Assembly (NCBI GenBank): GCA_963703135.1
Contig: OY969791.1
Span: forward strand, 46,954 to 110,953
Direction of reading: 5' to 3'
Length of the DNA: 64,000 nucleotides
Source: an uncultured Solirubrobacterales bacterium
GTDB taxonomy: Bacteria; Actinomycetota; Thermoleophilia; Solirubrobacterales; Solirubrobacteraceae
Under the pieces are notes generated by a model. The model ran no database searches and had not been told where the DNA came from. It saw only the letters and a program-made list of their open reading frames with translations. Position 1 is the stretch's first letter. Each line of letters starts with the position of its first letter. A program made the translations under genes and the position numbers. Positions 13,767-33,069 of this stretch are shown piece after piece.

Positions 13767-15003
13767 GGCTCACGCCGGGGACGAGCTTGGTGAATTCTCC
13801 CGCGTCGTTGACCGCCTTGACGTCGTACACGTAGCGACCCCTCGGCAGAGCCGCCGGCAGCAGATAGCTGAACGACTCGGTGTCGCCCACCATAAAGAAC
13901 CTCTTCGTCCCGCAACGACTGGTCACAAAGCGTCCCTTCGAGCCGCTGAAGGCAAAACAGCGTTTGCCCTTACGCCGCGCCAAGCTGATCCGCACTTCCT
14001 TGAGCGAGCCGCCCGCAGGCACGCTGACCGTGCCGTTGAGGATCCTCGGGGCTTTGCGCTTGGAGTACACGCGTCCCGGCTTGATCCCCGTCACCCTCGG
14101 GTAGGAGCTGACATGCGGCAGGCGGATCGTTGGGCAGCTGGCCGAGCCGGCGGCAGCAACGGCACACTCGACCGGTGGTTTGCCGGGCCCAAGCGGTCCT
14201 CCGCACGACGCCGAAGCAGACGCGGTAGCACACGCGACCGTCGGCGCGCAGACGCCATCGTCGCCGTTATGCACGCAGATCGTCGCCTCGGTGCGCACCG
14301 CCGGTGGGCCAGTCGCGGCTCCGTTGACCCGCAGTGTGTAGGAGCCCGCACCGATGAACTTCAGTGTCGCGTGACCTTGCGAATCGGTAGTCGCTTCGGC
14401 CCCGTCCCCAACCACGCTCGCGCCGACCGCAGGCGAGGGTTCGCCCTTGGCGTTGTACTGCTTCACGCTCACCGCAGTCGCTTCGCCGACGTTGGCCGTG
14501 GTGGGCGCTTCGATCTCTAGTGGCGTGGGGTTCGGTGGGCAGGCAGAGCCTTCGCATTCGACCAAAAGCAATACGTTTGCACCGGGCGCCAGTTCGACGC
14601 CACATACTCCGTGTTCTGTTTGAAAAACGTCGTTCAACCAGAACGACCAGAAGTAGTTTGCGTTCGAACCAAGTTCGAAGGGGTGACTCTCGCCCCCGAT
14701 CATTTCGACCGAGTAGCCGACTTCATCACCAAACCACTTGCCGCCCCAATTGCCGGCAGTCGCCAGCTGTAGCGCGCCAGCGGCGCTGGTGCCCGGACAC
14801 GAGTCAGCTTCGTTGCCGTCCTTGACGACAGGCGTCGTCGTGGTAGTGACGAGCGTCGGCGGAAGCTTTGTTTCGCTTAGCCCCTCAACCCTGACGGTGA
14901 CCTGGGCGGGCATCCCGGCGGCAAGCGCGCGGGCCGGGACGAACAGACAAAAGAGCGCGACAGCGAGGACCGCCGAGCGCGAGCAAATACGAGCTTGAGA
15001 CAT
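13744..15003 (-). CDS. Secreted protein: N-terminal DUF4430-like module plus two beta-sandwich (Ig/CarboxypepD_reg-like) regions; first gene after the riboswitch
   Basis: Signal peptide SAVLAVALFCLFVPARALAA. The next block, QVTVRVEGLSET..SAAGALQLATAGNWGGKW..GYSVEMIGGES..NYFWSFWLNDVFQ..ELAPGANVLLLVEC, resembles DUF4430. The ATG at 15003 has GAAAGGGG 8 nt upstream. The track ORF begins at TTG 15012. Confidence 0.65.
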   Translation of the reverse strand: MSQARICSRSAVLAVALFCLFVPARALAAGMPAQVTVRVEGLSETKLPPTLVTTTTTPVVKDGNEADSCPGTSAAGALQLATAGNWGGKWFGDEVGYSVEMIGGESHPFELGSNANYFWSFWLNDVFQTEHGVCGVELAPGANVLLLVECEGSACPPNPTPLEIEAPTTANVGEATAVSVKQYNAKGEPSPAVGASVVGDGAEATTDSQGHATLKFIGAGSYTLRVNGAATGPPAVRTEATICVHNGDDGVCAPTVACATASASASCGGPLGPGKPPVECAVAAAGSASCPTIRLPHVSSYPRVTGIKPGRVYSKRKAPRILNGTVSVPAGGSLKEVRISLARRKGKRCFAFSGSKGRFVTSRCGTKRFFMVGDTESFSYLLPAALPRGRYVYDVKAVNDAGEFTKLVPGVSHVVFYVK

Positions 15004-15039
15004 TGCAGCCAACCCCTTTCCACGAGGGCTTTGTGGGCT

Positions 15040-15205
15040 TGTGGTCGGAGGCAGGTTTCCTGGCTCCCGGGCCTACCCTCCGCGCCTTCCCGATCCGCCG
15101 AGCGGCCGATCAGTGGCTGCGCTTGCGCGCCGCGTCTGGCATCCCCGGTCACAGTGGCGGGTCCGCGCCGGATTCGCACCGACTTCCCTTTCCACCGACC
15201 TTTGA
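15040..15205 (-). promoter_or_regulatory. Cobalamin (AdoCbl) riboswitch aptamer
   Basis: The minus-strand RNA reads GGUCGGUGGAAAGGGAAGUCGGUGCGAAUCCGGCGCGGACCCGCCACUGUGACCGGGG ... GGGAGCCAGGAAACCUGCCUCCGACC. It has the conserved GGGAA/GGUG/AAUCC/CCCGCCACUG core (+ strand 15151-15190). It has a B12-box-like AGCCAGGAAACCUGCC (+ strand 15050-15065). The closing helix is GGUCGG/CCGACC. A downstream CCCU..AGGG pairing could mask the SD of the first gene. Confidence 0.85.
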
Positions 15206-15265
15206 ACGCCCGTCATCCTACACCCGCGCGCGGCCGTCGCGCCCCTGAGAGCCGGGAGCGCTTGG

Positions 15266-16522
15266 CTACAGCGTTCCGAGGTCTGCGTCGAGACTCACAA
15301 GCACGGCGCGCTGCTCCTCGTCAAGCGTCGTGCGGGCCTTGATCAAACGGCGCGCATGGTCCAGATCATCGGAGCGCCCAAACGTGAGCGCCGCGCGCAC
15401 GCGTCCCTGCTGTAGATAGAAGGTCGTGAACTTGCCCTCCTCGTAGGAGCCGCGCACGAGCTCCTCGTCCCACTCGTAGGCGGGACCCACGTACTCCAGC
15501 TCGCCCCAATCGCCGAGCACCGAATAAAAATAGGGGACGACCTCGTGGGGCACGTCTCCGCCGAGCATGTTCAAAGCGGCGGTCTTGCCGTGGTTGAAGG
15601 CCACGTCCCAGTGCTCGATGCGCACATGAGTGTCGTGTATCGGCGAGTCGTACTCGGCGATGTCCCCGGCCGCGAAAATCCCCGGCGCCGAGGTCTCAAG
15701 GCGCGAGGAGCAGACCACGCCGCCCCGCTCGCCGATCTCAAGACCGGCGCGCTTGGCCAAGGCCACGTCCGGCGTGACGCCGGCGCCCACGACCACCGCT
15801 TCGGCCGGCAGTTCCAGGCCGGCGCTCGTCACGACCTTGCCCACGCGCCCCTCCCGGCCGGGGCGCTCCTCAGCCTCGAAGCGCTCGAGCTCGTCGGAGC
15901 CGATCACCTCGATTCCATGCGATTCGAGCAGTCCTTGAAAGAAGCGTCCCGCGCGCTTGCCGAAACCTCGTTCCAAGGTCGCCTGCTCCTGCATCACGAT
16001 CGTCGCCCGCTTGCCCATCAAGGTCAGCGAGGCGGCGACCTCGCAGCCGATGTAGGAGCCGCCGATCAGCACCACCCGCTCGGCGTCGGCGACACCCTCG
16101 CGGATCGCATCGGCGTTGCCGAGCGTGCGCAGGTAGTGGATCTGATCTAGCTCGCAGCCAGGCACGTTCAGGCGGCGCACATTGGCCCCGGTCGCGATCA
16201 AGGCCTTCTCGAAGCGCAATTCCTGCTTGTCGGAGAGCTTGACCGTGCGCGACTCCAAGTCCAAGGACATCGCGCTCGTGCGCCTCAGCAGCTCGACTTT
16301 CTGCTCTGCCCACCAGTCCTCGGGTCTGAACAGCGGCTCCTCGCGACTCTCCTCGCCGCGCAGATAGCCCTTCGAGCACTCCGGCCGGTTGTACGGCGAG
16401 TCGGGCTCGCGTCCCACGAGCACGATCTCCCCCTCGGCGCCGGACTCTCGCAGCCAGCGCGCGCAGTTGGCCGACGCCAAGCCGCCACCGATCAGCAGAA
16501 ACTCCACCTCGCGCGTGCTCAT
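15266..16522 (-). CDS. FAD/NAD(P)-dependent oxidoreductase, ferredoxin-reductase (pyridine nucleotide-disulfide oxidoreductase) family
   Basis: MSTREVEFLLIGGGLASANCARWLRESG (FAD fold), VVLIGGSYIGCEVAASL (NAD fold) and GIFAAGDIAEY are present. ATG at 16522. The gene starts 14 nt after the stop of the CwlT-like gene. Confidence 0.85.
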   Translation of the reverse strand: MSTREVEFLLIGGGLASANCARWLRESGAEGEIVLVGREPDSPYNRPECSKGYLRGEESREEPLFRPEDWWAEQKVELLRRTSAMSLDLESRTVKLSDKQELRFEKALIATGANVRRLNVPGCELDQIHYLRTLGNADAIREGVADAERVVLIGGSYIGCEVAASLTLMGKRATIVMQEQATLERGFGKRAGRFFQGLLESHGIEVIGSDELERFEAEERPGREGRVGKVVTSAGLELPAEAVVVGAGVTPDVALAKRAGLEIGERGGVVCSSRLETSAPGIFAAGDIAEYDSPIHDTHVRIEHWDVAFNHGKTAALNMLGGDVPHEVVPYFYSVLGDWGELEYVGPAYEWDEELVRGSYEEGKFTTFYLQQGRVRAALTFGRSDDLDHARRLIKARTTLDEEQRAVLVSLDADLGTL

Positions 16523-16536
16523 TCTTGATTGCCACC

Positions 16537-17763
16537 TTACAACCCCGGCGGATGCCTGACCGACCAGTGCGCCCAAGTCGGGATGCGATCCAAGATGCGC
16601 CAGCGGGGTCCGTCTTGGTCGCGATTGGGCCCCACGTCGGTGCCGTTGTGGGAGGTGTCCAAGCGCAGGCCCGCGATAGTCATGAACACGTGGGCCGTGG
16701 GAGCGTCGGTGGCGTAGATCGTGACCCAGCGGCCGGGCCCCGGCGCACCCCAGTGCACGTAGTCCTGGGCCAGCGGGTTCTCACGCAAAATTTCTCCGAT
16801 CGGGCGCACCCCTGAGCGGTACAGCACGAAGTTGACGGTGCTCGAGCAGTCCTCGTCCAGGGCGCCCCTCGGGTCTGGATGGCCGTCGGGCCCATACGGC
16901 AGTTCCTGTAGCTCGTTACCCGCGATCACCATCGCCTGCACGACACTCGGCGCACCTTCGGGCACGAGCGCCACATGGCCGTCGCCGGGCGAGAGCACCG
17001 CTTGTTCGCCCGCCGTGAACTGAACGTCGCCCACGCCGGGCCATTCGCCGATCGACACTTCCCGCCCGGACGTCGTGCCGAGGGGCGCGGATCCTCGGTA
17101 CAGCGAGGCCCAATGCTCGACCTCCTGCACGTACCAATTCGCGTGGTTGTAGGCGAATATCGCCTGCTTGTAGTCGCCCGGCGCACCCGCGGCGCGCAGA
17201 TAGTTGGCCATCGAGAAGATCGCGTCGGCCGCGTCCCAGCGATCGGCCCGCCCGTCGCCGTCGCCGTCCACCCCGTACTCCCGCCAGGTCGAAGCCAGGA
17301 ACTGAGCGGGCCCGCCCGCGCCGGCCGAGTTGACCGCACCCTCCCTGGTGCAGGACGGATCGGGGTCGCGCCCGTGGTCGCACTCCACCTTGCCGATCCC
17401 GGCCAAGATCGCCCAGTCCAAGCCGTAGCGCCGCGCCGCTTCGGTGTAGAGCCTCAGGTATTCGGGTGGGATTTCCGCGCGCGCCCTGGCCGAGGGCCCA
17501 TATTCGCCGCCGCTGCCGCCCCGCGATTCCGTCGTGAGTCCGACGGTCACACCGACCATCGCGGCGCTTGCGATCAAAACGACCAAGCCCACGCCCACAA
17601 CGATCAGCAACCCCAGGACGAGACGCGCACCGAGACCGTGCCACGTGCGCTGCGAGCCCCGTCCCCGGGAACCGCGCACGCCCGGCTCGAGGATCGCCCC
17701 GGCATTCACTCGGACGCTCCCGGCTCTCGCGGCTTCCCCGGCCCTCGCGAATGCGTCTCCCAC
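16537..17763 (-). CDS. Two-domain cell-wall hydrolase (lytic transglycosylase/SLT-like plus NlpC/P60-like), CwlT/TcpG/VirB1 analogue
   Basis: N-terminal membrane anchor LVLGLLIVVGVGLVVLIASAAMV. The SLT-like block is YGLDWAILAGIGKVECDHG..AGGPAQFLASTWREYG..YNHANWYV. The C-terminal DEDCSSTVNFVLYRSG..AHVFMTIAG provides a Cys/His pair. Start uncertain, as the ORF overlaps the upstream gene by 58 nt. Confidence 0.75.
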   Translation of the reverse strand: MGDAFARAGEAARAGSVRVNAGAILEPGVRGSRGRGSQRTWHGLGARLVLGLLIVVGVGLVVLIASAAMVGVTVGLTTESRGGSGGEYGPSARARAEIPPEYLRLYTEAARRYGLDWAILAGIGKVECDHGRDPDPSCTREGAVNSAGAGGPAQFLASTWREYGVDGDGDGRADRWDAADAIFSMANYLRAAGAPGDYKQAIFAYNHANWYVQEVEHWASLYRGSAPLGTTSGREVSIGEWPGVGDVQFTAGEQAVLSPGDGHVALVPEGAPSVVQAMVIAGNELQELPYGPDGHPDPRGALDEDCSSTVNFVLYRSGVRPIGEILRENPLAQDYVHWGAPGPGRWVTIYATDAPTAHVFMTIAGLRLDTSHNGTDVGPNRDQDGPRWRILDRIPTWAHWSVRHPPGL

Positions 17764-20306
17764 CCCAACTGGCGCTTGCGCCTGGCCGCAACCTCACGGG
17801 CATCGTCCATCACGCTCGAGCGTTGCGACTCGGGCCGCACGCCAACGGGGACACGATCGATCTGGGCGGCGCTCACGGGAAAGCTGCTCGGAGGCCGGCC
17901 GGCCGGCGCCTCTCGCCCGCTCCGCCTCGCGTGTCCAGTCTGCGCCGCTCGCCCAGCCTGCCCGGTTCGCGCCGCCTGCCCGCCTTGCGCGGTCTGCACA
18001 GGGATGCCCGACGGCGGGGTCGATCGACCCGCGTGCTTGGCCAAGCTTGCGGCCGAAGCGATCTCGACTGCGTCCACCTCAGGATCGACCATCCCCAAGG
18101 CAAGCAGTCGGTGGCGCGCGTGCTCGCGGTCGACCCGCTGCTCGCGAACGCCGAGCTTCGCCGCCCTGCGCGTGTCCCCGTTCGCTAGCGCCTTCTGGCG
18201 CTCGCACCGCAACCGCTCCATGCGATGCCCGTGAGCCATCGATTCCACTCCGCCGGAGGACCCCGCCTTTGCCGGCGCCGCCTCGACGCCGGCCTGCGGG
18301 CCGCTCGATCGGCGCCTACCGGGAAGCGATGCGCCGGCCGGTCGCCGACTCTTGCGGTGTCGCTTACGTTCGCCTGAGATGCCGTCCGCGCCAGCTTCCC
18401 TCTCGCCGGCCTCGTCGGCCCCTCTTCGCTTGTCCGCGCCGAAGCCCTCGTCGCGTCCCCGCGACCGGGAACCCGAACCGGGGGAGGAGCCGCCGCCAGT
18501 GTTCCCTTGCACGGTCGCGGGAGGCTTCGTCGGCGAGCCGACAAGAGGCTCGACCTCAGGTGGGGGCTGCCTGCGCTTTCTGTGCTCGGCAATCGGCTTC
18601 GTCAGCCTGTTGCGCGTCTCCAACGCCTCCCCCATGCGCCGAGCCATCGAACGATGCGGCGGCTGAGGGTGTCTGCGGCTTGCCTCGGCGGCCCACCCGA
18701 GCGTCTGATGGCGCTTGAGGAAGATGCCCCACCAGAAGGCCGAAATCAGAAGCCATTGCACCCACCACCCCAGGATCGTGAGGCTCAACAGCAACTTCAT
18801 CATCATCAACACGACGCCCAGCAGAAACGAATAGGTGAGCTTGGCGATCAGCGCCTCCAACAACTTCAAGGCCCAGCCGCGAAAGGCCGAGCGGCCGCCG
18901 TCGCCGAGCGCCGGCGCCAGGACCGCGGCGGGCGCCAGCAATAGGAAGAACAGCCCCACCACCGCGGCGCCCAGCAACCGCAACGCCAGGAATCCCAACA
19001 GCAACAACATTCCCAAAGCGCCCAGCCAGATCGCGAACAGGCCGATCACGCGTGAGCCCGTGCCCTTCTGCGAGCGGAATTCGGCCTGCGCCGAGGTTGG
19101 GCCCCGACAGGCGTCGGCCGAATCGCCGCCGCCGCAAAGAACGTTGAGCAGCGTGCCCGCTTTCGTGGAGGAGTTGCGAGCCGCTTCATTGGCGGGGAGC
19201 GCCAGGAACAGCTCTCCGTTGGTCTGCGCTTCTCGCAACAGCGCCGCGCTCGCAAACAGCGTTCGTGACCCCTGACCCGCCCCTGCCGGGCAGCCGTCCC
19301 GGCATCCGCTCTTGGCTTCCTCGCTCTTGGCGATCCTCAGGCCGGCTGTGCGCAAGGCGCCGTCCAGCTGACCTGTGTCCTCACACCATCCAACGTCGCC
19401 GAACTCCAAGTAGCACCACGGCGTCGCAACGACACTGCCGAAGACCACCTGCATGCTGTCGGCCAGCGTGCGATCCGCGTGCTCGGGACTCCCGCTCGCA
19501 ACGGCCGCCATCGTGCCGAGTCCGGCCTGGTTGGTCCATTGCTCGACCGCCCCGACCGTGCCCGCCGGCTCGGCCATCACCCACAGGCCGCCCGCCATCA
19601 TTGCGAACATCGCCAGCGCCTGGCCGAGCGTCTCCGCGACCTGACGCCTGACCAGGCCGTGATACACGACCAAGACCGAGGCGATCGCGAGCACGATCGC
19701 GAGCCACGGTTCGGTGAAGCTCATACGCGCGTTGCGCAACGCTCCCGTCACCTGACTCAGCAGCGCCCCGCTCAACAGATCAAGCGAATAGCACCACTCG
19801 AACATCACCACCAGTCCGTGCGTGGCCGCCACGAGCGCCAGCCAGCCATACTGAGCGAAATCGTCGATCGTCGCCGACATGTCGTTGCCCCACTTGCCGA
19901 CGCCCGTGTCGATGTTCACGTCGAAGGCGTAATCGTTGGTCGGATCGGGTGCCGCCACGAAGCTGTCCGTTTCACAACTGCGCCGCTGAGCCGCCGAAAG
20001 GCCGCTCGGTTCGCGACACAGGGGGCTGTCCAAGCCGTTGCCGGCAAGCGGATCGCCGCCGCTCGCGGGCGCCGAGGCCGAGGCTTCAGCGCCGTGCGGG
20101 CTTCCTGAGCCGAGCACCGGCCCGCCAGGTGCGCGCGGGGCGCCCCTGTCGGTGCTCGTCGTCGGGCGCACGGCCGCAAGCGCACGCGCGGGAGCGCCAC
20201 GCGCGGGAGCCCCCGGCAGCACAAGCGCGGCCGCCGCAACCGTCGCAAACGCACGAGCGAGCAGCCGCGAAGATGACACGCACCCGGCGCCCAACGCCCT
20301 TGACAC
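17706..20306 (-). CDS. Polytopic membrane protein, VirB6/TrbL/ConG/TcpH-like, with a ~336-aa basic disordered C-terminal tail
   Basis: Signal-like N-terminus, the block DYAFDVNIDTGVGKWGNDMSATIDDFAQYGWLALV, and at least 6 TM segments up to residue ~530. An Arg/Gly/Ser/Pro-rich tail follows. The GTG start lies 2 nt after the VirB4-like stop. Confidence 0.65.
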   Translation of the reverse strand: MSRALGAGCVSSSRLLARAFATVAAAALVLPGAPARGAPARALAAVRPTTSTDRGAPRAPGGPVLGSGSPHGAEASASAPASGGDPLAGNGLDSPLCREPSGLSAAQRRSCETDSFVAAPDPTNDYAFDVNIDTGVGKWGNDMSATIDDFAQYGWLALVAATHGLVVMFEWCYSLDLLSGALLSQVTGALRNARMSFTEPWLAIVLAIASVLVVYHGLVRRQVAETLGQALAMFAMMAGGLWVMAEPAGTVGAVEQWTNQAGLGTMAAVASGSPEHADRTLADSMQVVFGSVVATPWCYLEFGDVGWCEDTGQLDGALRTAGLRIAKSEEAKSGCRDGCPAGAGQGSRTLFASAALLREAQTNGELFLALPANEAARNSSTKAGTLLNVLCGGGDSADACRGPTSAQAEFRSQKGTGSRVIGLFAIWLGALGMLLLLGFLALRLLGAAVVGLFFLLLAPAAVLAPALGDGGRSAFRGWALKLLEALIAKLTYSFLLGVVLMMMKLLLSLTILGWWVQWLLISAFWWGIFLKRHQTLGWAAEASRRHPQPPHRSMARRMGEALETRNRLTKPIAEHRKRRQPPPEVEPLVGSPTKPPATVQGNTGGGSSPGSGSRSRGRDEGFGADKRRGADEAGEREAGADGISGERKRHRKSRRPAGASLPGRRRSSGPQAGVEAAPAKAGSSGGVESMAHGHRMERLRCERQKALANGDTRRAAKLGVREQRVDREHARHRLLALGMVDPEVDAVEIASAASLAKHAGRSTPPSGIPVQTAQGGQAARTGQAGRAAQTGHARRSGREAPAGRPPSSFPVSAAQIDRVPVGVRPESQRSSVMDDAREVAARRKRQLGWETHSRGPGKPREPGASE

Positions 20307-20308
20307 GC

Positions 20309-22777
20309 TTACGCTCCGGACACTTGCGGCGTGGTCGAGAAGGCACGCAACAAAGACGGCACCACGACCTCGACCTGGATCGCCTCGACGCGTCCGCGGT
20401 GATCGCGAAACAAACAGCGTCCCGCCTCGAATTCGAGCAGGCGCTCACGGGCGCGACGATCCTCGGGATCCAACCCCAGCAGGGTCAGCGCGCGCGAGGC
20501 CTCGAGCTCCGAACGCATACCGAACACGAATGTCGCCCCAAGCAGATTCTCAAGCGATTCACGCTCGCCGACCAAGGCGTCGGTGACCAATTGCGTGCTG
20601 ATGATCGGGACCGCCAGCTCGGAGCGACCCATGCGCTGCAACGAGGCCAGCAGCGTGCGTCCGACCGGGTCGCCCAAGAGCCGCCATCCCTCGTCGAATG
20701 AGAACAACTTCAAGCGTTCGCGCTCGCTCGACATCAGATGTGTGGCGAACATCGCGATCAGGCGCACTATCTGCTGACCGACACGCTCGGCCTGGGTGTA
20801 CTCCGAGCGCGGCGTGCCCGGCTCGGGCCCCGGCAAGTCGCGGATCGGCAGATAGGTGACCTGCGCTTGGCCGACAGGCGCCAACTTCGTGCTCGGATCG
20901 GCAAAGCCCAACTGGGTGAGCCCTGAGCGCGCATAGATCTCGAGCGTCTTTGCGACTTGTCTGTCGACCTCGTCGCCTGAGGCGAGCGCCCGCACCACCT
21001 CCAAGCAGGTCGGCTGGCGCGAGCGGCCCAGCACGCGATCCACTCCGCCGAGAATCGCCGTCTCCCAAGAGGGATCTGCCCGCCCCGGCAGCAGGTCACA
21101 CAAGAAGGAGACCGTCGCGTCGTGGCGCAAATGTTCGGGCGCCACTCTCAGCGGATCGAGCATTCCCCGCAGGGCGGGGTCTGGGCGCAAGGCGATCGTC
21201 TCGGTGTGGGGAGCGACCTCCTCCAAGAGGTGAAAGCGATGGTCGCCCTTCGGATCGCAATCGATCACCCGGGCGCCGCCCAGAAAAGCCTCGTACTTGA
21301 GCTTCTGGGCGAGCGTCGTCTTGCCCGATCCGAGCGCCCCGACGCTGAGGATCGTCGTGTTTCGATCGCTCTCCGAGCCCTCGCGCAAGTTCAAGCGCAC
21401 CGCGTGGCGCGAGCCGGAGAGCGTGTGACCCAGGTAATAGCCTCGCCGCGAGCCGACGGCATGTGTGGCTGTCGGCATCGCCGCCGCGACCTGCTCGAGC
21501 GTGAGGGTGTCCTCATAGCCGGCGACACGTGTGCGCTGGGCCGGAAGGTGCTGGAGAAACAGCTCCAACTGGTCGCCGAGCGGTCGGTGCAGGCGGATCT
21601 CACCGTAGGCGCGCCGGCAGAGCTCCACCCGCTCGGAGAGCTCCTGCTCGCTTCCCGCTCCGATCGCGATCGCGAGCGTCGCCTTCAGCAACGGCGGGCG
21701 ACTGGAGGCCTGTAGGTAGGCGAGCAGGTCGCGGGCCTCCTGGGTGCGCTGGTAGCCCAGGTCTGAGACGCCCTGCTCGCCGTCGGACTCGGCCCTTGCG
21801 ATCTGGTCGGCGTCCTGAACCCGACGGCGCGCCACACGCAGCGCGAGCTCGTTGGGCAAGAAGCGGGCGTTCAGCGAAAGGTCGACGTCGAAGGGCAGGC
21901 TTTCGACGGGAGCGAACATCAGCTCCACCCGCGCACCGGGAAACGAAGCCTGCTCGGGAAGTGCGCCCAGCACGAGCAGCGCCTGCCAGCTCTCGCCCAA
22001 CTCGGACTCGATTCGCAGCGAGCGCCCGCGATGTTCGACATAGCCGTCCATCCAGCGCGTCACGTCGCCCTCCAAGGGGGCCAACAGCGCCTCGCCGTTG
22101 CGTTCGAACACGAGTGCCCGCGGCTCGTGCAGGCCGTCGAGCACGGGCTCGCCGAGCCCTCGGCAAAACGCGCGACGCACGAGCCACTGCAGCTCCACGC
22201 CTCGTGCCGGTCGCACCGAGAGAAAATCCTCCAGTCGAGCGTGAGCCCGGTCGGCGCGGACGCGCACGCTCTCCAGCTCGGACGCTTTCAAAACTCCGCC
22301 CTCGCGGGCAAAAAGAGCGCCTCTCAGGGACTGAAACCACTCGCGGGGATGGCGCTCGACGGCGCGGGAGACATACGAGGCGACGTCCCGCTCGGGGTCG
22401 CGCAAGCTGACGAGCAGAAACAGGGAAGGCTCTGCCCCGCGGACCTGCTCCAGACGTTGTGCGTGCTCGGCGAGATAGCGCTCGCGGGCGCTCCCGTGCG
22501 CGCCCGGCGCGGCCGTCTCCTCCAGATCGGCCAGGTACCCGTCCACATCCCAAGGCTTGGCCACACGCACGATCTGGACATCCGCTTCGATCGCGTCGAG
22601 CGCACCCAGCAGCGCAAGCAACCGGCTGCGCTTGGCCTCCTCGGAGAGCCACTCATAGGAGGCGGTCTGAACCGCGAATGCCGCCCACGGGTCGTTCAGG
22701 CCCGAGGCGAAAACACAGTTCCCATAGACAAAGGAGATGGGAGGGCGCAGTTCAACGCACCCCCACGCGTGTTCCAC
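20309..22777 (-). CDS. VirB4/ConE/TcpF-type type IV secretion ATPase
   Basis: 822 aa. Walker A is ILSVGALGSGKTTLAQKL and Walker B-like is RLKLFSFDEGWRLLGD. It sits between the VirB3-like and VirB6-like genes, as in Gram-positive conjugation modules. Confidence 0.8.
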   Translation of the reverse strand: MEHAWGCVELRPPISFVYGNCVFASGLNDPWAAFAVQTASYEWLSEEAKRSRLLALLGALDAIEADVQIVRVAKPWDVDGYLADLEETAAPGAHGSARERYLAEHAQRLEQVRGAEPSLFLLVSLRDPERDVASYVSRAVERHPREWFQSLRGALFAREGGVLKASELESVRVRADRAHARLEDFLSVRPARGVELQWLVRRAFCRGLGEPVLDGLHEPRALVFERNGEALLAPLEGDVTRWMDGYVEHRGRSLRIESELGESWQALLVLGALPEQASFPGARVELMFAPVESLPFDVDLSLNARFLPNELALRVARRRVQDADQIARAESDGEQGVSDLGYQRTQEARDLLAYLQASSRPPLLKATLAIAIGAGSEQELSERVELCRRAYGEIRLHRPLGDQLELFLQHLPAQRTRVAGYEDTLTLEQVAAAMPTATHAVGSRRGYYLGHTLSGSRHAVRLNLREGSESDRNTTILSVGALGSGKTTLAQKLKYEAFLGGARVIDCDPKGDHRFHLLEEVAPHTETIALRPDPALRGMLDPLRVAPEHLRHDATVSFLCDLLPGRADPSWETAILGGVDRVLGRSRQPTCLEVVRALASGDEVDRQVAKTLEIYARSGLTQLGFADPSTKLAPVGQAQVTYLPIRDLPGPEPGTPRSEYTQAERVGQQIVRLIAMFATHLMSSERERLKLFSFDEGWRLLGDPVGRTLLASLQRMGRSELAVPIISTQLVTDALVGERESLENLLGATFVFGMRSELEASRALTLLGLDPEDRRARERLLEFEAGRCLFRDHRGRVEAIQVEVVVPSLLRAFSTTPQVSGA

Positions 22778-23360
22778 GTCCCAGAGCGATCACCTGGCCT
22801 TTGGCGAGCGTTCCCCGGGAAGGCAATTCGCCGATCGTCATCTCCGGTCGACCGAGCAAACGCCCGACGGCGCCCACGCGCCACTCCAAGCGTCGGTGAG
22901 CAACCGTCACAAGGACGGCTCCGGGACCGGAGTAGCGGAACCTGCGCAGGCGCGCGTCCGAGCCATCGGGGAGATACAGCAGAGGCGGCGCGTACCAGCG
23001 CTGTCCGGCTTTGAAGCACTCGCTCGAACGACACACCCGCAGGCCGGCCAGATGACGCGGCCCGCACGCGAAGCCAAGCAGCGCGCGAAGCGTCAGATGA
23101 GCAGGCCTTCCCTCGATCCGGATCATCGTCAATATCGCCGCGGCGCCGCCGGGCAATCCCAGATCGCGGATGTACCAAGGCGCGAGCTTGACGATCGCGC
23201 CGAGCAGCGGCAGCGCACCGATCGCAACGATCAGGGCGACCAGCCCCAGGAAATAGACGATGCCCCGCAAGGGCACACCGCCGGGGTTGAGGCGCAGCCG
23301 GTCGATGCGGTAGATGCGACGCTCGAGGTCGAACACCCTCCGGTAGGAGCGGATTTCCAT
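22752..23360 (-). CDS. TcpE/PrgI/ConD (VirB3-like) family membrane protein
   Basis: MEIRSYRRVFDLERRIYRIDRLRLNPGGVPLRGIVYFLGLVALIVAIGALPLLG matches the TcpE-type pattern (Y..F....RIY.ID followed by two TM helices). It lies immediately upstream of the VirB4-like gene. Confidence 0.6.
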   Translation of the reverse strand: MEIRSYRRVFDLERRIYRIDRLRLNPGGVPLRGIVYFLGLVALIVAIGALPLLGAIVKLAPWYIRDLGLPGGAAAILTMIRIEGRPAHLTLRALLGFACGPRHLAGLRVCRSSECFKAGQRWYAPPLLYLPDGSDARLRRFRYSGPGAVLVTVAHRRLEWRVGAVGRLLGRPEMTIGELPSRGTLAKGQVIALGRGTRVGVR

Positions 23361-23405
23361 GGGATTGGCTTTGCGAGGACTCAGGGCGGGCGCCCTTCGG
23401 CCGGC

Positions 23406-23684
23406 TCAGGACGCCCCGAACAGGGAATTGACGGTGTCGTGCAGGACGTTCACCCCGGCCGGCGTGGCGAGCAGGATCGCAAGCAGACCGATCGCGAAGA
23501 TGCCTGCCGCCTCCTTGAAGTCTCGTCTGAAGGCGAGCACGATCGAGGCGATCGCGAAGCCCAGCGCGATCAGGCTCATCGCGACCTTGCGCCCGGTCTC
23601 GCCGGCCTTGGTGGCCGCCGATTCAAGCGAGGCTCCTCCTTCGCTTGCCGCCATCAGTGCGTGAATCGTGTGCAGCGTGTGCAT
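23406..23684 (-). CDS. Small two-TM membrane protein (ConC / VirB2-like position)
   Basis: 92 aa with two hydrophobic helices (VAMSLIALGFAIASIVLAF, GIFAIGLLAILLATPAG). A strong SD (AAGGAG) lies 7 nt upstream of the ATG. Confidence 0.6.
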   Translation of the reverse strand: MHTLHTIHALMAASEGGASLESAATKAGETGRKVAMSLIALGFAIASIVLAFRRDFKEAAGIFAIGLLAILLATPAGVNVLHDTVNSLFGAS

Positions 23685-23750
23685 TGCAACTCCTTCGCTT
23701 TGGTGTTTGTGAAATCGATTGGTAGGCGCGTGGAGAAAGCCGCGGCAGAC

Positions 23751-24608
23751 CTAGCCGTCGGGATCTGTCTGGATGGCCGCTATCTCCCAGCGGCCCGCTC
23801 GGGAGACCACGTCGAGTTCGTAGGCGAGCGTGTATGTGGCGCCGCGCCCGTCGCGGGCGCGGACCTGTGCGACCACGGCGCGCCCGGCGGCGCTCCAGGC
23901 GAGACTGTCGAGGGTCTGCATGCTCAGCGCCGCCCCCGGCAGTGAGACGTGCGCGCCGGCGAGCAGATCGGCGTCGAGCTCCGAGCCCGCGCCCGCCAGG
24001 TAGTTGCGCAACGCCCGCTTGACCACGGTCGCAAGCGGCGCGTTTTCCACTTCTGGCAATTCGCGCGCGGACGCGGCGCCGGTCCAGGCCGGCGCTCCGA
24101 CCAGCGCGGGATACCCGGCGAGCGCCAGGCTGCCGTCTGGACCGCGCTCGACGGCGACGGTCAGATAGAGAAGACCGTCGCTGTCTGTCTGCGCCGCGAC
24201 CGTGTAGAGGCGATCGCCGGCCGGGGCGAATCGTGCTTGGACCACTTCGCTCCACAGCACCCGCTGCTCGCCCCGTTCGGGCGGTTGCAAGCCCGCTTCG
24301 GTTTCCATCGAGGCGTTCAGATAAGGCGCGAGCGCACGCCTCCGAGCTTCGAGGTCGCTGGAGTTCCAGCTGAGATAGACGCGGGCAAAGAGAGACGCGA
24401 AGCCTTCGGCGGCCCGGTCCAGCGGCACCCCGCTCGATAGCGCCGCATGAGGGCTCGGAGGCTTGGGTGGAGCGATCGCATAGCGCGCGCTCGCGAGCAG
24501 TCCGAGAGCCGCCGCGCCCTGAACGAGGATGCGCGGCAGGCTGCCGGCCAGGCGTATCCGCCACAGCGGGCGGGGCGTGAGCTTGACCGATGCGTGCGGA
24601 GCGCTCAC
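23751..24608 (-). CDS. TcpC/ConB (VirB8-like) family conjugal-transfer-type protein
   Basis: N-terminal TM (ILVQGAAALGLLASARYAI) followed by two repeated NTF2-like halves (FASLFARVYLSWNSSD.. and VVKRALRNYLAGAGSELD..), as in TcpC-family proteins. Confidence 0.6.
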   Translation of the reverse strand: MSAPHASVKLTPRPLWRIRLAGSLPRILVQGAAALGLLASARYAIAPPKPPSPHAALSSGVPLDRAAEGFASLFARVYLSWNSSDLEARRRALAPYLNASMETEAGLQPPERGEQRVLWSEVVQARFAPAGDRLYTVAAQTDSDGLLYLTVAVERGPDGSLALAGYPALVGAPAWTGAASARELPEVENAPLATVVKRALRNYLAGAGSELDADLLAGAHVSLPGAALSMQTLDSLAWSAAGRAVVAQVRARDGRGATYTLAYELDVVSRAGRWEIAAIQTDPDG

Positions 24609-24612
24609 GAGT

Positions 24613-25224
24613 TCAACGCTCGAACTCGAACTCTGCGCCGGCTGGGGCCGAGGCCGCCGTGGGCGATGGGGACTCGGTCGGGGCGTCCACCCTCACGTCC
24701 GCGGTCGCCTTGGCACGGCGAGCCACAACTGTTTGCCGCGCTTGGGCGGACGGAGTAGCCGTCGAGCCGCCACCTGGACCGTCCGCGACGCCGGGGAGCG
24801 AGCTTTCGGGAGTACCCGCGGGACTCGCCGGGCGCTCGTTCGATCGAGCTTGCAAGTCTGGCCTCGCACTGGAGGCTCCCGGCGCTCGGCGCTCCGAGCC
24901 GGAGCTTGCCGGCGGTATCGGGTGAGCGGCTGAGGGCGCCGACGCGCCGGCTCCCGGCGGAGAACTCTGGCCGTGCAGATGGGAGACGACCAGTCCGCCC
25001 GCCCCGATAGCCGCGCCCAGCAGCAACCCGACTCCGATCAAGCGGGGCCCGCGCGAGCGCGCGCCGGGCGCCGGGACTCCCACCTCGGGGGCCCTCCCGA
25101 GGAAATCGCTCTCCGGTTCATCGTGCGGAGGCTCGGTCTCCCCCGCCGGGTGGCCGTCGGAGACGTACTCGTCTTGGCCGTAGACGCAATAGACCTGACG
25201 TGGGGCGCGGCGCCAAAGACTCAT
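24613..25224 (-). CDS. Single-pass membrane protein with a Pro/Ser/Ala-rich extracytoplasmic tail (possible anti-sigma-like partner)
   Basis: A ~60-aa acidic cytoplasmic N-terminus, the TM LIGVGLLLGAAIGAGGLVV, then a low-complexity tail. Its stop lies 4 nt upstream of the TcpC-like start. Confidence 0.5.
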   Translation of the reverse strand: MSLWRRAPRQVYCVYGQDEYVSDGHPAGETEPPHDEPESDFLGRAPEVGVPAPGARSRGPRLIGVGLLLGAAIGAGGLVVSHLHGQSSPPGAGASAPSAAHPIPPASSGSERRAPGASSARPDLQARSNERPASPAGTPESSLPGVADGPGGGSTATPSAQARQTVVARRAKATADVRVDAPTESPSPTAASAPAGAEFEFER

Positions 25225-25393
25225 CGCGCTTTTCCCGAGCGGAGGGCGCAGGTCACGCAGGCGACCGGGAGCGAGGATGGGGAGAAATCCCGCTCCCGGC
25301 CGCTTGCATGCGAACGGGAAGCGCCGGTCGATCGTCTCGGCAACCGATCTCCAGCGTCCCGAGGGACGCGCCTATGTGGGGGGCGAGGGGTTT

Positions 25394-26125
25394 TCATAGG
25401 TGTGTCCCTGCCTTCTCATCCGACGTGCGGAGGAAAGCGGGACACGCTCTCACCACGGATCGTGCGGCTGCAGTGGGATCGATCTCGCCCTGCTCGGCGA
25501 GCAGCCGGGCCAGCCTCGCGCGGGCGCGCTGGGCGACCTTGCGGTACTTCTCCTGCGACCAGCCGTGCGAGCGACAGAATTCCTCGCGAGTCTCGCGACC
25601 CACGAGCTGGCTCTTGAGCACCGAGCGCTGGTCGGGCGAGAGCCTGCTCGCGAGGCGGCAGATCAGAGCGAGGTCGTGGCGCGCCAGCGCGAGACGCTCG
25701 ACGTCGGCGCGAGCGTCCATCAGTTCGAGACCGCCTTCCCAGGCCCCTAGTGGCAGCGCCGTGGCCACGGCGGCCTCGATCGGGCTGCGTCCGCCCAGGG
25801 CACGACGACGATCTTGGATGCGCGAGGCGAAGCGTTGCTCGAGCGCGTTGGCGATGTGGGCGCGAGCGGAGAACGCGCTGTCGCGCTTGGCTCGCTTGAG
25901 CAACTCGAGCGTGGCCTGGCTGTAACAGTCCTCCAGGTCCTCCCTGGTGAGCCGGTGTCGATGGGCCGCCAGCAGTGTCTCGCGTCTTGCGCCGACGACT
26001 AGGGCCACCGTCTCGGTGGGGTCCGCCGGCGCTTGTCGGGCGAGGCCTCCGAGACGTTTGAAGCTCTCTTGTCGGGTAGACACGTAAGCATGTCGGTGCG
26101 AGTGGCCCCCACACCCCCCTCCCAA
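25394..26125 (-). CDS. Sigma-70-family (ECF-like, regions 2 and 4) transcription factor
   Basis: Region-2-like LTREDLEDCYSQATLELLKRAK. Region-4 HTH-like LSPDQRSVLKSQLVGRETREEFCRSHGWSQEKYRKVAQRARARL. Start uncertain. An alternative GTG at 26008 would remove the overlap with divergent yihY. Confidence 0.65.
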   Translation of the reverse strand: MGGGCGGHSHRHAYVSTRQESFKRLGGLARQAPADPTETVALVVGARRETLLAAHRHRLTREDLEDCYSQATLELLKRAKRDSAFSARAHIANALEQRFASRIQDRRRALGGRSPIEAAVATALPLGAWEGGLELMDARADVERLALARHDLALICRLASRLSPDQRSVLKSQLVGRETREEFCRSHGWSQEKYRKVAQRARARLARLLAEQGEIDPTAAARSVVRACPAFLRTSDEKAGTHL

Positions 26126-26983
26126 TTTCTGCGTGCGCGGCTGAACGCGCTCGATGAGTTCCAGCAGCGCCGGCCGGTGCTTGGCTTCGTGGTCGCCGTG
26201 TTCAAGCGCTTCGACGACGATCAGGCGAGCCAGCTGGGGGCGCTGATCGCCTATTACGGGTTCTTCTCGCTATTTCCCTTGCTGCTGGTGTTCGTGACGG
26301 TGCTGGGGTTCGTGCTGGAAGGCAGCCCGGCCACCCAGGAAAGCGTGGTGCACTCGACGCTCAGCCAGTTCCCGGTGATCGGCAACCAGTTGCAGCAGAA
26401 CGTCCATTCGTTGACGGGCAGCGTGCCGGCGCTTGCGATCGGGCTGCTCGGGGCGACGTTGGCGGGCCTCGGCATCACCGGCGCGGCCCAGAGCGCCTTC
26501 AACAAGGTGTGGGAGATCCCCCGTTCGCATCAGCTCGGGTTTTTGGCATGGCGCGTGCGCGGCGTGGGGATGCTTGTGGTGTTCGGCCTGCTGACGATCG
26601 TCTCGACTGTCGCCGCCGGCTATGTGACCGCTCAGACTACGGGCGCGCTCGCGCTGCTCGGCGGCATAGTCGTCGCCTTTGCGGCGAACCTGCTGTTGTT
26701 CTTTGCGGTCTTCCGGCTGCTGACCTCAGAGGAGGTGGCGACCCGCGAGCTCCTTCCGGGTGTGGTTGTGGCGGCGATCCTGTGGCAAGTGCTGCAGCAC
26801 GTTGGCGGTTTCTATGTGGAGCATGTGGTGCGCCACGCCAAGGAGACCTCGGGCTTGTTCGCGTTCGTGCTTGGGCTGCTGACCTGGCTTTATCTGGGCG
26901 GTCAGGTGACCGTTTTGGCGGCCGAGGTGAACGTCGTGCGCGCGCGGCGCCTGTGGCCGCGGCGCCTGTTCTCGGCGCCTTGA
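26090..26983 (+). CDS. yihY: YihY/BrkB-family membrane protein
   Basis: FKRFDDDQASQLGALIAYYGFFSLFPLLLVF.. followed by six TM segments is typical of YihY/virulence factor BrkB. ATG at 26090 chosen; the ORF begins at 26033. Confidence 0.8.
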   Translation: MSVRVAPTPPSQFLRARLNALDEFQQRRPVLGFVVAVFKRFDDDQASQLGALIAYYGFFSLFPLLLVFVTVLGFVLEGSPATQESVVHSTLSQFPVIGNQLQQNVHSLTGSVPALAIGLLGATLAGLGITGAAQSAFNKVWEIPRSHQLGFLAWRVRGVGMLVVFGLLTIVSTVAAGYVTAQTTGALALLGGIVVAFAANLLLFFAVFRLLTSEEVATRELLPGVVVAAILWQVLQHVGGFYVEHVVRHAKETSGLFAFVLGLLTWLYLGGQVTVLAAEVNVVRARRLWPRRLFSAP

Positions 26984-26986
26984 GGC

Positions 26987-27015
26987 CTCTCCAGCCGGCT
27001 GAGGAGATGTTTTTT
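26987..27015 (+). terminator. Possible intrinsic terminator after yihY
   Basis: An imperfect GC hairpin (CTCTCCAGCC/GGCTGAGGAG) is followed by TTTTTT at 27010-27015. Such a T-run is rare in this GC-rich window. Confidence 0.4.
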
Positions 27016-27069
27016 GGGACGTTGTGCCTGCGTGTCTCGATGCCGGGCCGGTGCCGCAAGTAACAGGAC

Positions 27070-27097
27070 TTGACGAGCGCCCACGGCGCGCTATACT
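27070..27097 (+). promoter_or_regulatory. Sigma-70-like promoter upstream of lon
   Basis: TTGACG (27070-27075), a 16-nt spacer, then TATACT (27092-27097). It lies 23-38 nt upstream of the lon start candidates. Confidence 0.5.
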
Positions 27098-27134
27098 AAC
27101 TACACTTTCGTAAGCACATATGGAGCGTATAGCG

Positions 27135-29489
27135 ATGGCTTCGACACCCTCATCTTCATCCGGCGGCGTCCCGTCGCCCGAGCAGCAAGCAAAGCCGGTG
27201 CTGCGCCTGATCCCACTCGACGACACGGTCGTGTTCCCGAGCATGGGCATCACGCTCACGGTCGACGTGGGCGACGACGAGCGCGTGGTCTTGGTGCCGC
27301 GCCACGAGAACGAGTTCCTGGAGGTCGGCACGATCGCCGAGGTCTCCGAGCAGTTGCGCCTACCGGGAGGCGCCCACGCGGTCGCCCTCTCCGGCGAGCA
27401 CCGCGCGCTGATCGGCGCCGCCCAGACGGGCCCCGAAGGAGAGTTGCGCGTCGAGGTGGACGAGCGCCCCGACGACGTGCCTGTGGACAAGCGCACCCGC
27501 GAGCTCGAGCGCGAATACCGCGCCGTGGTCGAGGAGATCCTCGAGCTACGCGGCGACGACGGGCGCATCGCGGCGTTCCTGCGCGCGATCGTGGAGCCCG
27601 GCCCCTTGGCGGACTCCGCCGGCTACTCCCCCAACCTGACCTACGAGCAGAAGGTCGAGCTGCTGCGCACGCTTGGCGTGACCGATCGGCTGGAGCTGGC
27701 TGTCAAGCTGCAACGCGACAGCCTGGCTGAGCTGCAGGTGCGCAAGCGCATCCGCGAGGACGTGCAAGAGGGCGCCGACAAGCAGCAGCGCGAGTACTTC
27801 CTGCGCAAGCAGATGGAGTCGATCCGCAAGGAGCTCGACGAAGACGAGACGTCGATCGTCGAGGAGTACAAGGCCAAGATCGAGGGCGCCGAGATGCCCG
27901 AGGATGTCCAGGAGCAGGCCCTGAAGGAGCTGGGCCGCCTGGAGCGGATGGGCGAGCAGACGGGCGAGTCCTCGATGATTCGCACCTACCTGGACTGGCT
28001 GATCGCGGTGCCTTGGAGCAAGCGCTCGGAGGAGCACCTCGATCCCGTGGCGGCGCGCGAAGTGCTGGACGCCGACCACGAGGGCTTGGAAGACGTAAAG
28101 GACCGCATCACCGAGTACCTGGCTGTGCGCAAGTTGCGCCAGGACCGCGGCATCGAGGCCGACCCCAAGTCGGGGGCGATCTTGACGTTGATCGGACCCC
28201 CGGGCACCGGCAAGACCTCGATAGGCGAGTCGATTGCACGTGCGACCGGACGCGAGTTCGTGCGCATGTCCCTTGGCGGCGTACGCGACGAGGCAGAGAT
28301 CCGCGGACACCGGCGCACCTACATCGGCGCCCTGCCGGGACGATTGGTCCGTGCCCTGCGCGACGCCGGCACGATGAACCCGGTGATCCTGCTCGACGAG
28401 GTCGACAAGGTCGGCGCCGACTGGCGCGGCGACCCATCGGCCGCGCTGCTCGAGGTGCTCGACCCGGCCCAGAACCACTCCTTCCGCGACCACTACCTGG
28501 ACGTGGAGCTGGACCTGAGCCAGGTCATGTTCATCGCCACCGCCAATGTGGCAGACACGATCCCCGGGCCGCTGCTCGACCGCATGGAGGTGATCCGCTT
28601 CGACGGCTACACCTCCGAGGAGAAGCTCGCGATCGCCAAGGGCTACCTATGGCCGCGCCAACGCGACCGCAACGGTCTGCGCGAGGACGAGGTGAATGTC
28701 TCCGATGAGGTGCTGCGCACGATCGTGAGCGAGTACACGCGCGAGGCGGGTGTACGCAACCTCGAGCGGGAGCTGGGCACGGTCTTGCGCAAGACGGCCA
28801 CAAGGATCGCCTCGGGCGAGGTGGAGCCACCTGTGGAGATAACCCTTGAGACCGTGCGCGACGCGCTCGGACGCCAGAAGTTCTTCCAGGAGTCGGCGGC
28901 ACGTACGGCTACACCGGGCGTGGCGACGGGTCTTGCCGTCACGGGCACCGGCGGCGACGTGCTGTTCGTCGAGGCCACGGCGATGAAGGGCAGCGGCTCG
29001 AGCGGCAACGGATTGGTGCTCACCGGGCAACTGGGCGACGTGATGAAGGAGTCGGCGCGAATCGCCCTCTCCTACGTGCGCGGCCACGCCGAGGATCTCG
29101 GCATCGATCCTGCGGCGTTTGAGAACAGCGAGTTCCATGTGCACGTACCGGCTGGCGCGATCCCCAAGGATGGCCCCAGCGCGGGCGTGACGATGGTCAC
29201 GGCACTCGCCTCGCTGCTCTCGGAGCGGCCGGTGAAGCACACGGTGGGGATGACCGGCGAGGTCACCTTGCAGGGTCGCGTGTTGCCGATCGGCGGGCTC
29301 AAGCAGAAGGTGCTTGCCGCCCACGCGGCAGGACTGACCGACGTGATCCTGCCGGAGCGAAACCGCGGCGATCTGGACGACATCCCCGAGGAGGTTCGCG
29401 AGCAGATGAGCTTTCACCCGGTGATGAGCATCGACGAAGTGCTCGACGTCGCTTTGGAGCCGGCACCCACGGTCGCCCAGGTCTCCTGA
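27135..29489 (+). CDS. lon: ATP-dependent Lon protease
   Basis: LON N-domain (LRLIPLDDTVVFPSMGITL), Walker A LIGPPGTGKTS, and the proteolytic domain PKDGPSAGVTMVTAL with the catalytic Ser. ATG 27135 has GGAGCG 8 nt upstream. An alternative ATG lies at 27120. Confidence 0.95.
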   Translation: MASTPSSSSGGVPSPEQQAKPVLRLIPLDDTVVFPSMGITLTVDVGDDERVVLVPRHENEFLEVGTIAEVSEQLRLPGGAHAVALSGEHRALIGAAQTGPEGELRVEVDERPDDVPVDKRTRELEREYRAVVEEILELRGDDGRIAAFLRAIVEPGPLADSAGYSPNLTYEQKVELLRTLGVTDRLELAVKLQRDSLAELQVRKRIREDVQEGADKQQREYFLRKQMESIRKELDEDETSIVEEYKAKIEGAEMPEDVQEQALKELGRLERMGEQTGESSMIRTYLDWLIAVPWSKRSEEHLDPVAAREVLDADHEGLEDVKDRITEYLAVRKLRQDRGIEADPKSGAILTLIGPPGTGKTSIGESIARATGREFVRMSLGGVRDEAEIRGHRRTYIGALPGRLVRALRDAGTMNPVILLDEVDKVGADWRGDPSAALLEVLDPAQNHSFRDHYLDVELDLSQVMFIATANVADTIPGPLLDRMEVIRFDGYTSEEKLAIAKGYLWPRQRDRNGLREDEVNVSDEVLRTIVSEYTREAGVRNLERELGTVLRKTATRIASGEVEPPVEITLETVRDALGRQKFFQESAARTATPGVATGLAVTGTGGDVLFVEATAMKGSGSSGNGLVLTGQLGDVMKESARIALSYVRGHAEDLGIDPAAFENSEFHVHVPAGAIPKDGPSAGVTMVTALASLLSERPVKHTVGMTGEVTLQGRVLPIGGLKQKVLAAHAAGLTDVILPERNRGDLDDIPEEVREQMSFHPVMSIDEVLDVALEPAPTVAQVS

Positions 29490-32908: not shown

Positions 32909-32995
32909 GCTAGTCGAAGCGTACCCAGACCGTCCAGTAGCCGCAGTGGGGGCACAGGAGGACCAGCCCTCCTCCCGATTCCACCCAGAACTCAA

Positions 32996-33069
32996 TCGGG
33001 GCGGCCGGATTTGAACCGGCGACCCCCTGCTCCCAAAGCAGGTGCGCTACCAAGCTGCGCCACGCCCCG
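32996..33069 (-). tRNA. tRNA-Pro (anticodon UGG)
   Basis: The minus strand reads CGGGGCG TG GCGC AGCTTGGTA GCGC A CCTGC TTTGGGA GCAGG GGGTC GCCGG TTCAAAT CCGGC CGCCCCG A. This is a full cloverleaf of 74 nt with anticodon TGG. No CCA is encoded. Confidence 0.93.

Follow-up and report, generated by a model that had tools for sequence, protein, structure and literature searches.

Among the type IV secretion systems (T4SSs) described so far, the closest counterparts of the locus reported here are the transfer modules of pCW3 (TcpC-D-E-F-G-H), ICEBs1 (ConB-C-D-E-G and CwlT) and Tn916 (orf13-17). The locus is a run of eight genes at positions 16537-26125, on the minus strand, of a 64-kb stretch of contig OY969791.1 from an uncultured Solirubrobacterales bacterium (the whole stretch is referred to as the window). 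It matches these modules both in component families and in gene order, an analogy that the first-pass annotation of the window had drawn for ICEBs1 and Tn916 and that holds for pCW3 as well: a TcpC/VirB8-like protein, a small protein with two transmembrane (TM) segments, a TcpE-like protein, a TcpF/VirB4 ATPase of ~820 amino acids, a polytopic VirB6-like protein and a cell-wall hydrolase are common to them all. Unlike these systems, the locus has no TcpA/ConQ or VirD4 coupling protein, no MOB-T relaxase, no integrase and no att sites; it occupies a fixed chromosomal site at which it appears to be inherited vertically, and its ATPase is at most 27% identical to the plasmid-borne relatives (Bacillus, Nocardiopsis, Streptomyces). 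A match to a Nonomuraea 'plasmid', an unannotated record, is likewise 27% identical.

Taken together, the profile searches, locus comparisons, substitution rates and VirB4 phylogeny make it likely that this module is a conjugation-derived T4SS of the mating-pair formation class MPF-FA (Tcp/Con-type), which was captured once by an ancestor of a Solirubrobacterales lineage and has since been inherited vertically as a chromosomal operon; the machine was probably taken over for a function of its host. Its fixed site and gene order, the purifying selection acting on it and the single clade formed by its VirB4 proteins, apart from relatives in mobile contexts, argue for domestication and not for decay or a recent island. 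We further suggest, with somewhat less than even confidence, that this is a lineage-wide Gram-positive T4SS free of a coupling protein, put to a non-conjugative use and switched by a dedicated extracytoplasmic function (ECF)-like sigma factor together with a ligand- or factor-responsive RNA. If this were true, it would follow that of the Patescibacteria as only the second lineage-wide co-opted T4SS in monoderms, and no earlier one would be of the Tcp/Con type. The locus offers a natural example of a Tcp/Con-type machine that is devoid of mobility genes at the locus and maintained by selection in numerous species of a soil order that is abundant and for the most part uncultured. Two questions become approachable: which task a machine of this kind performs when no coupling protein is encoded in cis, and in which way an apparatus from a mobile element is wired into host regulation.

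A coupling protein is also missing from the T4SSs ComB of Helicobacter, which serves DNA uptake, and Trw of Bartonella, which serves adhesion. The same applies to two other working systems, Bordetella Ptl (toxin export) and Brucella VirB (PMC12102498). These four systems indicate that a VirB4-driven function is possible without a type IV coupling protein (T4CP) or relaxase, but they are diderm, outer-membrane-spanning MPF-T machines with VirB7/9/10 cores, and their sequence relation to the module is limited to VirB4. Among Gram-positive bacteria, nearly all known T4SS functions consist of DNA transfer, the exceptions in a 2025 review being Streptococcus suis 89K and the Patescibacteria (PMC12857230). 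The latter (e.g. Southlakia epibionticum) provide the closest precedent for a lineage-wide co-opted monoderm T4SS (PMC12102498, PMC12857230). Like the module, the patescibacterial system has its own VirB4 clade, is chromosomal and lineage-wide and has no relaxase nearby; the two are read as co-opted for a non-conjugative role, and a VirB2-like small subunit may be a further feature in common. However, the patescibacterial T4SS is of MPF-FATA descent, with arrays of VirB2-like pilins and T4CP homologues in most genomes, and it is essential for the epibiotic growth of ultrasmall epibionts, whereas the module is MPF-FA-like (TcpC/TcpE/TcpF), appears to be differently regulated and belongs to Actinomycetota that live freely in soil and have a chromosome of ~3 Mb.

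Conservation, selection and descent of the module

Close relatives of the module's VirB4 ATPase number more than 1,000; all those with a named organism come from metagenome-assembled genomes (MAGs) of Solirubrobacterales or Solirubrobacteraceae. Relatives were sought in one genome per species, which yielded 451 genomes, and the locus layout was mapped by tblastn with the window proteins in the best 80 of these; the 80 are all Solirubrobacterales, with VirB4 identities of 74-98%, and many of the loci lie on chromosomes of ~3 Mb. The common order reads Lon and YihY (both on the minus strand), the sigma-like gene, a TM protein (in most loci), TcpC, a 92-amino-acid protein (p92), TcpE, VirB4, the ConG-like protein, the hydrolase, a ferredoxin-reductase-like FAD oxidoreductase (FdR) and a cluster with a B12 riboswitch. 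The core is colinear in 68 of the 80 loci and both the YihY and the FdR flanks are shared in 64, most of the remaining loci being on contigs too short for judgement. Median amino-acid identities are 88% for Lon, 78% for VirB4, 75% for FdR, 74% for p92, 69% for the hydrolase, 57% for TcpC, 54% for TcpE, 53% for the sigma-like protein and 51% for the ConG-like protein. Every module gene is under purifying selection. Pairwise ratios of nonsynonymous to synonymous substitution rates (dN/dS) are 0.08-0.15 for VirB4, in the range of Lon (0.04-0.15), with FdR at 0.10-0.28; they are 0.09-0.49 for the other module genes, except for the TM protein, which reaches 0.56. The first-pass annotation had leaned towards domestication rather than decay and had named synteny and dN/dS as ways of checking this; both comparisons bear it out.

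The VirB4 proteins associated with this locus form, in a neighbour-joining tree, a single short-branched clade among long-branched relatives. Outside relatives with 41-50% VirB4 identity, found by searching the cluster representatives exhaustively, share the TcpC-small protein-TcpE-VirB4-ConG core (with or without the hydrolase) at 31-61% identity. Where contigs were long enough for the flanks to be read (those of P0121, P0128 and P0131 were too short), these relatives adjoin genes for SSB, Toprim, DnaB, ParA and TnpB and, in the case of L086, a VirD4-type T4CP. Neither the sigma-like gene of the locus nor its structured RNA was found in the mobile relatives examined. Within the Solirubrobacterales clade, the ConG-like gene has diverged strongly even between close genomes: the comparison of the window with a genome ~98% identical to it (L001) gives a dS of 1.04 and a dN of 0.29, against a dS of 0.06-0.20 for the neighbouring genes. 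This points to allelic replacement or to diversifying selection on an exposed protein, and such hypervariability is suggestive of an exposed, possibly cell-cell, interface.

About 50 open reading frames (ORFs) across the window were tested for T4CPs, relaxases and integrases, and none was found, in agreement with the first-pass annotation; the ORFs have housekeeping assignments (PntAB, an energy-coupling factor transporter, Lon, YihY, a class II aminoacyl-tRNA synthetase, two cytochrome oxidase operons, alanine racemase and others). The earlier description of the surroundings was equally accurate. Direct repeats in the window are short and at chance level, and there is no tRNA junction, the sole tRNA gene (Pro, 32995-33070) lying ~7 kb from the module, beyond lon. 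The GC content is 0.68-0.70 inside the module and 0.66-0.70 in its flanks (0.62-0.73 over the window). One flank consists of YihY/BrkB and Lon and the other of the FdR gene followed by a cobalamin riboswitch and an energy-coupling factor transporter cluster. A recent island was rejected on GC content, repeats and tRNA position. Moreover, searches with the T4CP of L086 (tblastn) and with primase, ParA and DnaB proteins of the mobile relatives revealed no relatives in the window or within ±10 kb of the locus in the 80 genomes. As regards classification, the locus possesses the VirB4, TcpC and hydrolase of an MPF-FA system, with no coupling protein in the window; it departs from an integrative and conjugative element (ICE) in having no relaxase, integrase, recombinase or att/tRNA junction and in occupying the same site in at least 64 species.

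Component proteins of the machine

The eight ORFs are consecutive and co-directional, as originally described. Their tight packing and coupling stand for four of the seven junctions, namely those between the TM protein and TcpC (4 nt), TcpE and VirB4 (26-nt overlap), VirB4 and ConG (2 nt) and ConG and the hydrolase (GTGA overlap), the other three being gaps of 45, 66 and 169 nt. All components described below are encoded on the minus strand. The VirB4 ATPase (822 amino acids, 20309..22777) is of the TcpF/ConE type and has intact Walker A and B motifs; it matches PF12846 (AAA_10) at 160.7 bits (cutoff 27.5) and NF052333 (TcpF) at E=1e-53 over residues 240-819. Among 79 VirB4 orthologues, the Walker A motif GALGSGKT is conserved in 74 and the Walker B motif FSFDEGW in 77. 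A sequence search with this protein against the PDB gave no match at E<=0.01. The TcpC/ConB/Orf13-type protein (VirB8-like, bitopic, 285 amino acids, 23751..24608) matches PF12642 over residues 70-276 at 41.4 bits (cutoff 27) and was found in 77 of 79 comparison loci. Both proteins had been named correctly in the first-pass annotation. A GC-rich shadow frame at 23623-24564 was considered for TcpC and rejected, having no family match; the true frame is 23751-24608.

The position of ConC/TcpD is taken by p92 (23406..23684), which has two hydrophobic helices and no family match above threshold. Its topology resembles that of VirB2/TrbC pilins, its core is 63-95% identical between species, and 14 of 25 members match PF04956 (TrbC/VirB2) weakly (best E=0.002). 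One member matches CagC, and the N-terminus of p92 is signal-peptide-like in some species. The TcpE/ConD-like membrane protein (202 amino acids, 22752..23360) is present in 78 loci, and its orthologues in the outgroup loci L086 and L091 carry TcpE matches. The ConG/VirB6/TcpH-like polytopic protein (866 amino acids, 17706..20306) has six predicted TM segments, a Cys-rich outer loop (residues ~230-420) and a basic, disordered C-terminal tail of ~300 amino acids (~560-866); the L086 orthologue matches PF04610 (TrbL).

The cell-wall hydrolase (16537..17709) begins with a TM segment, which is followed by a lytic transglycosylase core resembling MltB/Slt35 and by a conserved Cys/His domain at the C-terminus. 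Its start is GTG 17709, which corrects the first-pass annotation and overlaps the ConG stop codon. Of the two hydrolase domains first proposed, the lytic transglycosylase part is supported by a 56-bit match to SLT_2 and by matches to MltB/Slt35 structures. The C-terminal part is NlpC/P60-like by motifs alone: PYG..GHPD, DCSS and HVF are conserved and are common to a mobile-element orthologue, and the isolated domain had no match in Pfam and none in PDB profiles. In an AlphaFold2 model built with 40 close homologues, pLDDT is below 50 across residues 209-389.

The single-pass membrane protein (203 amino acids, 24613..25224) had no family match in profile searches. In 72 loci the structured RNA is followed by an ORF of ~110-430 amino acids (160-290 in most cases), as a rule with the same N-terminal motif and a single predicted TM segment. 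Only this cytoplasmic motif of ~20 residues (LWRRAPREVYRVYGEDEYL) is kept across species, the linker and the outer part being variable and fast-evolving. A role as an anti-sigma-like or adaptor protein is possible.

Sigma-like gene, promoter-like region and structured RNA

The first gene of the module encodes a divergent ECF-type sigma-like factor (25394..26083, minus strand) and is present in 71 of the 80 loci. Its most likely start is GTG 26083, giving a protein of 229 amino acids, and not 26125, to which the longest ORF extends and where the first-pass annotation had placed it; the 5' part of this long ORF is conserved as nucleotides, with no codon pattern. The profile TIGR02937 (sigma70-ECF) is matched by 11 of 16 sigma orthologues, and non-sigma models never matched. 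No significant match to the Pfam sigma models (r2, r4) was obtained, in a PDB profile search ECF sigma structures were matched weakly, in sigma-4 (E=0.45), and an hhalign comparison with an approximate E. coli RpoE sequence gave no match. The module may be under its own sigma factor, as first put forward, but the sigma-like protein is divergent and scores below family cutoffs, and the mobile relatives L084 and L217 are also accompanied by sigma genes.

Upstream of the sigma-like gene lie conserved blocks (26071..26125, minus strand) that consist of TTGGGAGGGGGGT, 17 nt, CGACAT, 6 nt and GTGTCTACCCGAC. Each block is at least 90% conserved over 72 loci, and neither third codon positions nor rare codons fall below this level of conservation, which indicates a constraint at the nucleotide level and not on a protein. 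The spacing is consistent with -35 and -10 elements and with a leaderless GTG start at 26083, and conservation by itself suggests that the blocks TTGGGAGGGGGGT, CGACAT and GTGTCTACCCGAC are a promoter. The G-rich -35-like block is unusual. The motif has a single exact copy in the window, with no second one beyond chance. Internal promoters were considered and rejected: the TcpC-p92 and p92-TcpE gaps are unconserved except for the p92 Shine-Dalgarno sequence GAAGGAG, which is strongly conserved, and outside the RNA gap no other intergenic stretch of the operon is conserved.

The 169-nt gap downstream of the sigma-like gene, in which the first-pass annotation had missed a structured RNA, is far better conserved than the surrounding proteins. 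The RNA motif spans ~170 nt (25244..25423, minus strand), covering the sigma stop codon and the gap, and nhmmer located it exactly once in each of the 75 loci with coverage of this region, always at the same position and in the same orientation. An alignment of 72 sequences supports a multi-helix fold with 37 pairs, of which 97% of cells are canonical. Compensatory double changes occur at 20 pairs, compared with 7.4±1.5 in shuffled alignments (0/500), and pairing falls to ~41% in slid-alignment controls. The G-U pairs worsen the fold of the reverse strand (89% canonical versus 98.5%), which argues that the RNA is read in the direction of the operon. The window copy has a minimum free energy of -89.9 kcal/mol (z = -4.8). 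The structure shows a C-rich loop on P1, a long 3' hairpin that is rich in GC and capped by a CUCCCC loop, and a GCGGCCGGGAGC/GCUCCCGGUCGC helix; four GUCCC/GGGAC segments could adopt alternative pairings, which suggests a switch.

Rfam 15 gave no match to this RNA at E<=1 over 15000-28000, the sole match being the unrelated cobalamin riboswitch, and with our own covariance model the window yielded a single copy and the mobile relatives L081-L088 yielded none. Scanning metagenome contigs for an exact pattern gave 120 stretches, 119 of them with the RNA motif; all recognisable neighbour genes of these 119 are genes of the T4SS locus, and in 77 stretches the sigma-like gene lies upstream of the RNA and TcpC downstream. 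In genomes as in metagenomes, the motif was thus seen at this locus only. This RNA is a previously undescribed candidate cis-regulator, and its trigger could show when the machine is used.

These elements can be assembled into a scheme. A single capture of the transfer module of a conjugative element would have been followed by loss of the mobility genes and by vertical inheritance under selection. The VirB4/TcpF motor, the TcpC, TcpE and ConG membrane components, the small two-helix subunit and the peptidoglycan hydrolase would have been retained, while the coupling protein, the relaxase, the replication/partition genes and the integrase would no longer stand alongside. Expression appears to be integrated into the host: the conserved promoter-like region would drive the ECF-like sigma gene, and the locus-specific RNA between the sigma and the structural genes most likely gates their transcription or translation. 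With expression thus timed by sigma and RNA, the hydrolase would open the wall, TcpC, TcpE, ConG and p92 would form a membrane conduit, and VirB4 would power assembly and translocation. Such a machine would presumably move a macromolecule across the envelope for the benefit of the host and not for self-transfer; DNA uptake or exchange, contact-dependent delivery and the building of a surface structure are possible roles.

Competing explanations and neighbouring genes

Several observations weigh against the proposal that a Tcp/Con-type machine has been domesticated in this lineage. Three proteins of the module score under the cutoffs of their families: the TcpE-like protein reaches 21.9 bits (E=2.6e-4) with PF12648 (cutoff 29.9), the ConG-like protein 53 bits (E=2e-14) with NF046089, the CD3337/EF1877 mobilome membrane protein (cutoff 120), and the sigma-like protein 27.4 bits (E=2e-6), over nearly its full length, with TIGR02937 (cutoff 42.9). 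L006, L027 and L033, which belong to one subclade of the tree, have no ConG gene at the locus, so the canonical channel may be dispensable or relocated in some lineages. The comparison genomes are all MAGs from a single order, and the regulatory role suggested for the RNA is drawn from conservation alone. Finally, VirD4-type T4CPs are common in Solirubrobacteraceae MAGs, and the absence of T4CP and relaxase described above covers the 64-kb window.

This last point bears on the idea that the module is a working conjugation machinery whose T4CP and relaxase are encoded elsewhere and which transfers chromosomal DNA or mobilisable elements between cells, an explanation that we regard as unlikely. 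The T4CP acting in trans could be, for instance, a VirD4-type protein of the Cmd/SCO6880-type cluster described below or one supplied by a resident ICE. With the T4CP of the mobile relative L086 as query, many VirD4-type proteins were retrieved, the organism-named ones from Solirubrobacteraceae MAGs, and the L086 protein is 54-71% identical to the VirD4-type proteins listed. In ICEBs1, ConG and YddJ form a recognition/exclusion interface pair, and the hypervariability of ConG between near-identical genomes would fit an interface of that kind. A T4CP gene far from virB4 is not unusual (PMC12102498). However, the VirD4-type proteins sit in another cluster, composed of DUF6112, SCO6881-family and SCO6880-family (301 bits) proteins, a short VirB4-like ATPase and the VirD4-like protein, with a divergent ECF sigma gene in some cases. 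This cluster is syntenic between housekeeping genes of the chromosome in three assemblies (L214, L215 and L216; at about 4.5-12.2 kb in each) and partial in L212. In L217 its surroundings are ICE-like, with a TrwC relaxase next to it. With an ATPase and SCO6880/SCO6881/DUF6112 proteins of their own, the T4CPs of Solirubrobacterales thus appear to be parts of a separate machine, a different type of T4SS. The two systems were not seen in one genome, the four T4CP contexts coming from assemblies outside the 80-locus set, and the surroundings of the module in the 80 genomes contain no candidate for a relaxase or an oriT.

The same cluster is relevant to a second explanation, improbable in our view, according to which the module exports no cargo but acts in the cell envelope or cell cycle (septation, chromosome partition, wall remodelling) in the manner of the Streptomyces CmdABCDEF proteins. 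The cmdABCDEF (SCO4126-4131) and SCO6878-6881-type clusters resemble the module as T4SS-like operons that hold a fixed place in an actinobacterial chromosome and encode membrane proteins together with a VirB4-related ATPase. The cmd cluster is developmentally regulated; when it is deleted, sporulation and chromosome segregation are disturbed, but plasmid transfer is not (PMC2782261). The wall hydrolase and the basic, disordered ConG tail of the module would suit a role of this type. Nevertheless, the gene families differ: the Streptomyces type has a ~420-amino-acid VirB4-like ATPase with SCO6880, SCO6881, DUF6112 and a VirD4-like protein, and the SCO6880, SCO6881 and DUF6112 models match at L215 and had no match among the window proteins. 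The genuine Cmd-type cluster is a separate locus in Solirubrobacterales (L214-L216), an order in which, to our knowledge, sporulation is not known. As for a decaying ICE remnant without current function, the missing T4CP, relaxase and integrase and the loss of ConG in three species could be cited for it, but this highly improbable explanation was rejected on synteny and dN/dS, given intact ORFs whose order and site are shared by 64-68 species-level genomes, low dN/dS, conserved ATPase motifs, conserved regulatory DNA and RNA and a GC content equal to that of the flanks.

Next to the module, the FdR gene (15266..16522, minus strand; Pyr_redox_2 203 bits, Reductase_C) begins 14 nt after the hydrolase stop codon and is adjacent to the hydrolase in 66 loci. 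Co-transcription of this gene with the T4SS operon is possible. Beyond it, the cobalamin riboswitch (15033-15218, minus strand, 81 bits) precedes a gene (13744-15012, minus strand) with a weak CarboxypepD_reg-like domain; its identity to L001 is unusually low, at 68%, when the FdR, DUF4430 and ABC genes on its flanks reach 90-96%. A DUF4430/energy-coupling factor transporter cluster follows downstream of this gene. Elsewhere in the window, two cytochrome c oxidase sets lie within 10 kb on the plus strand, at 46716-49348 (COX2 and COX1) and at 51454-55839 (COX2, COX1 and COX3).

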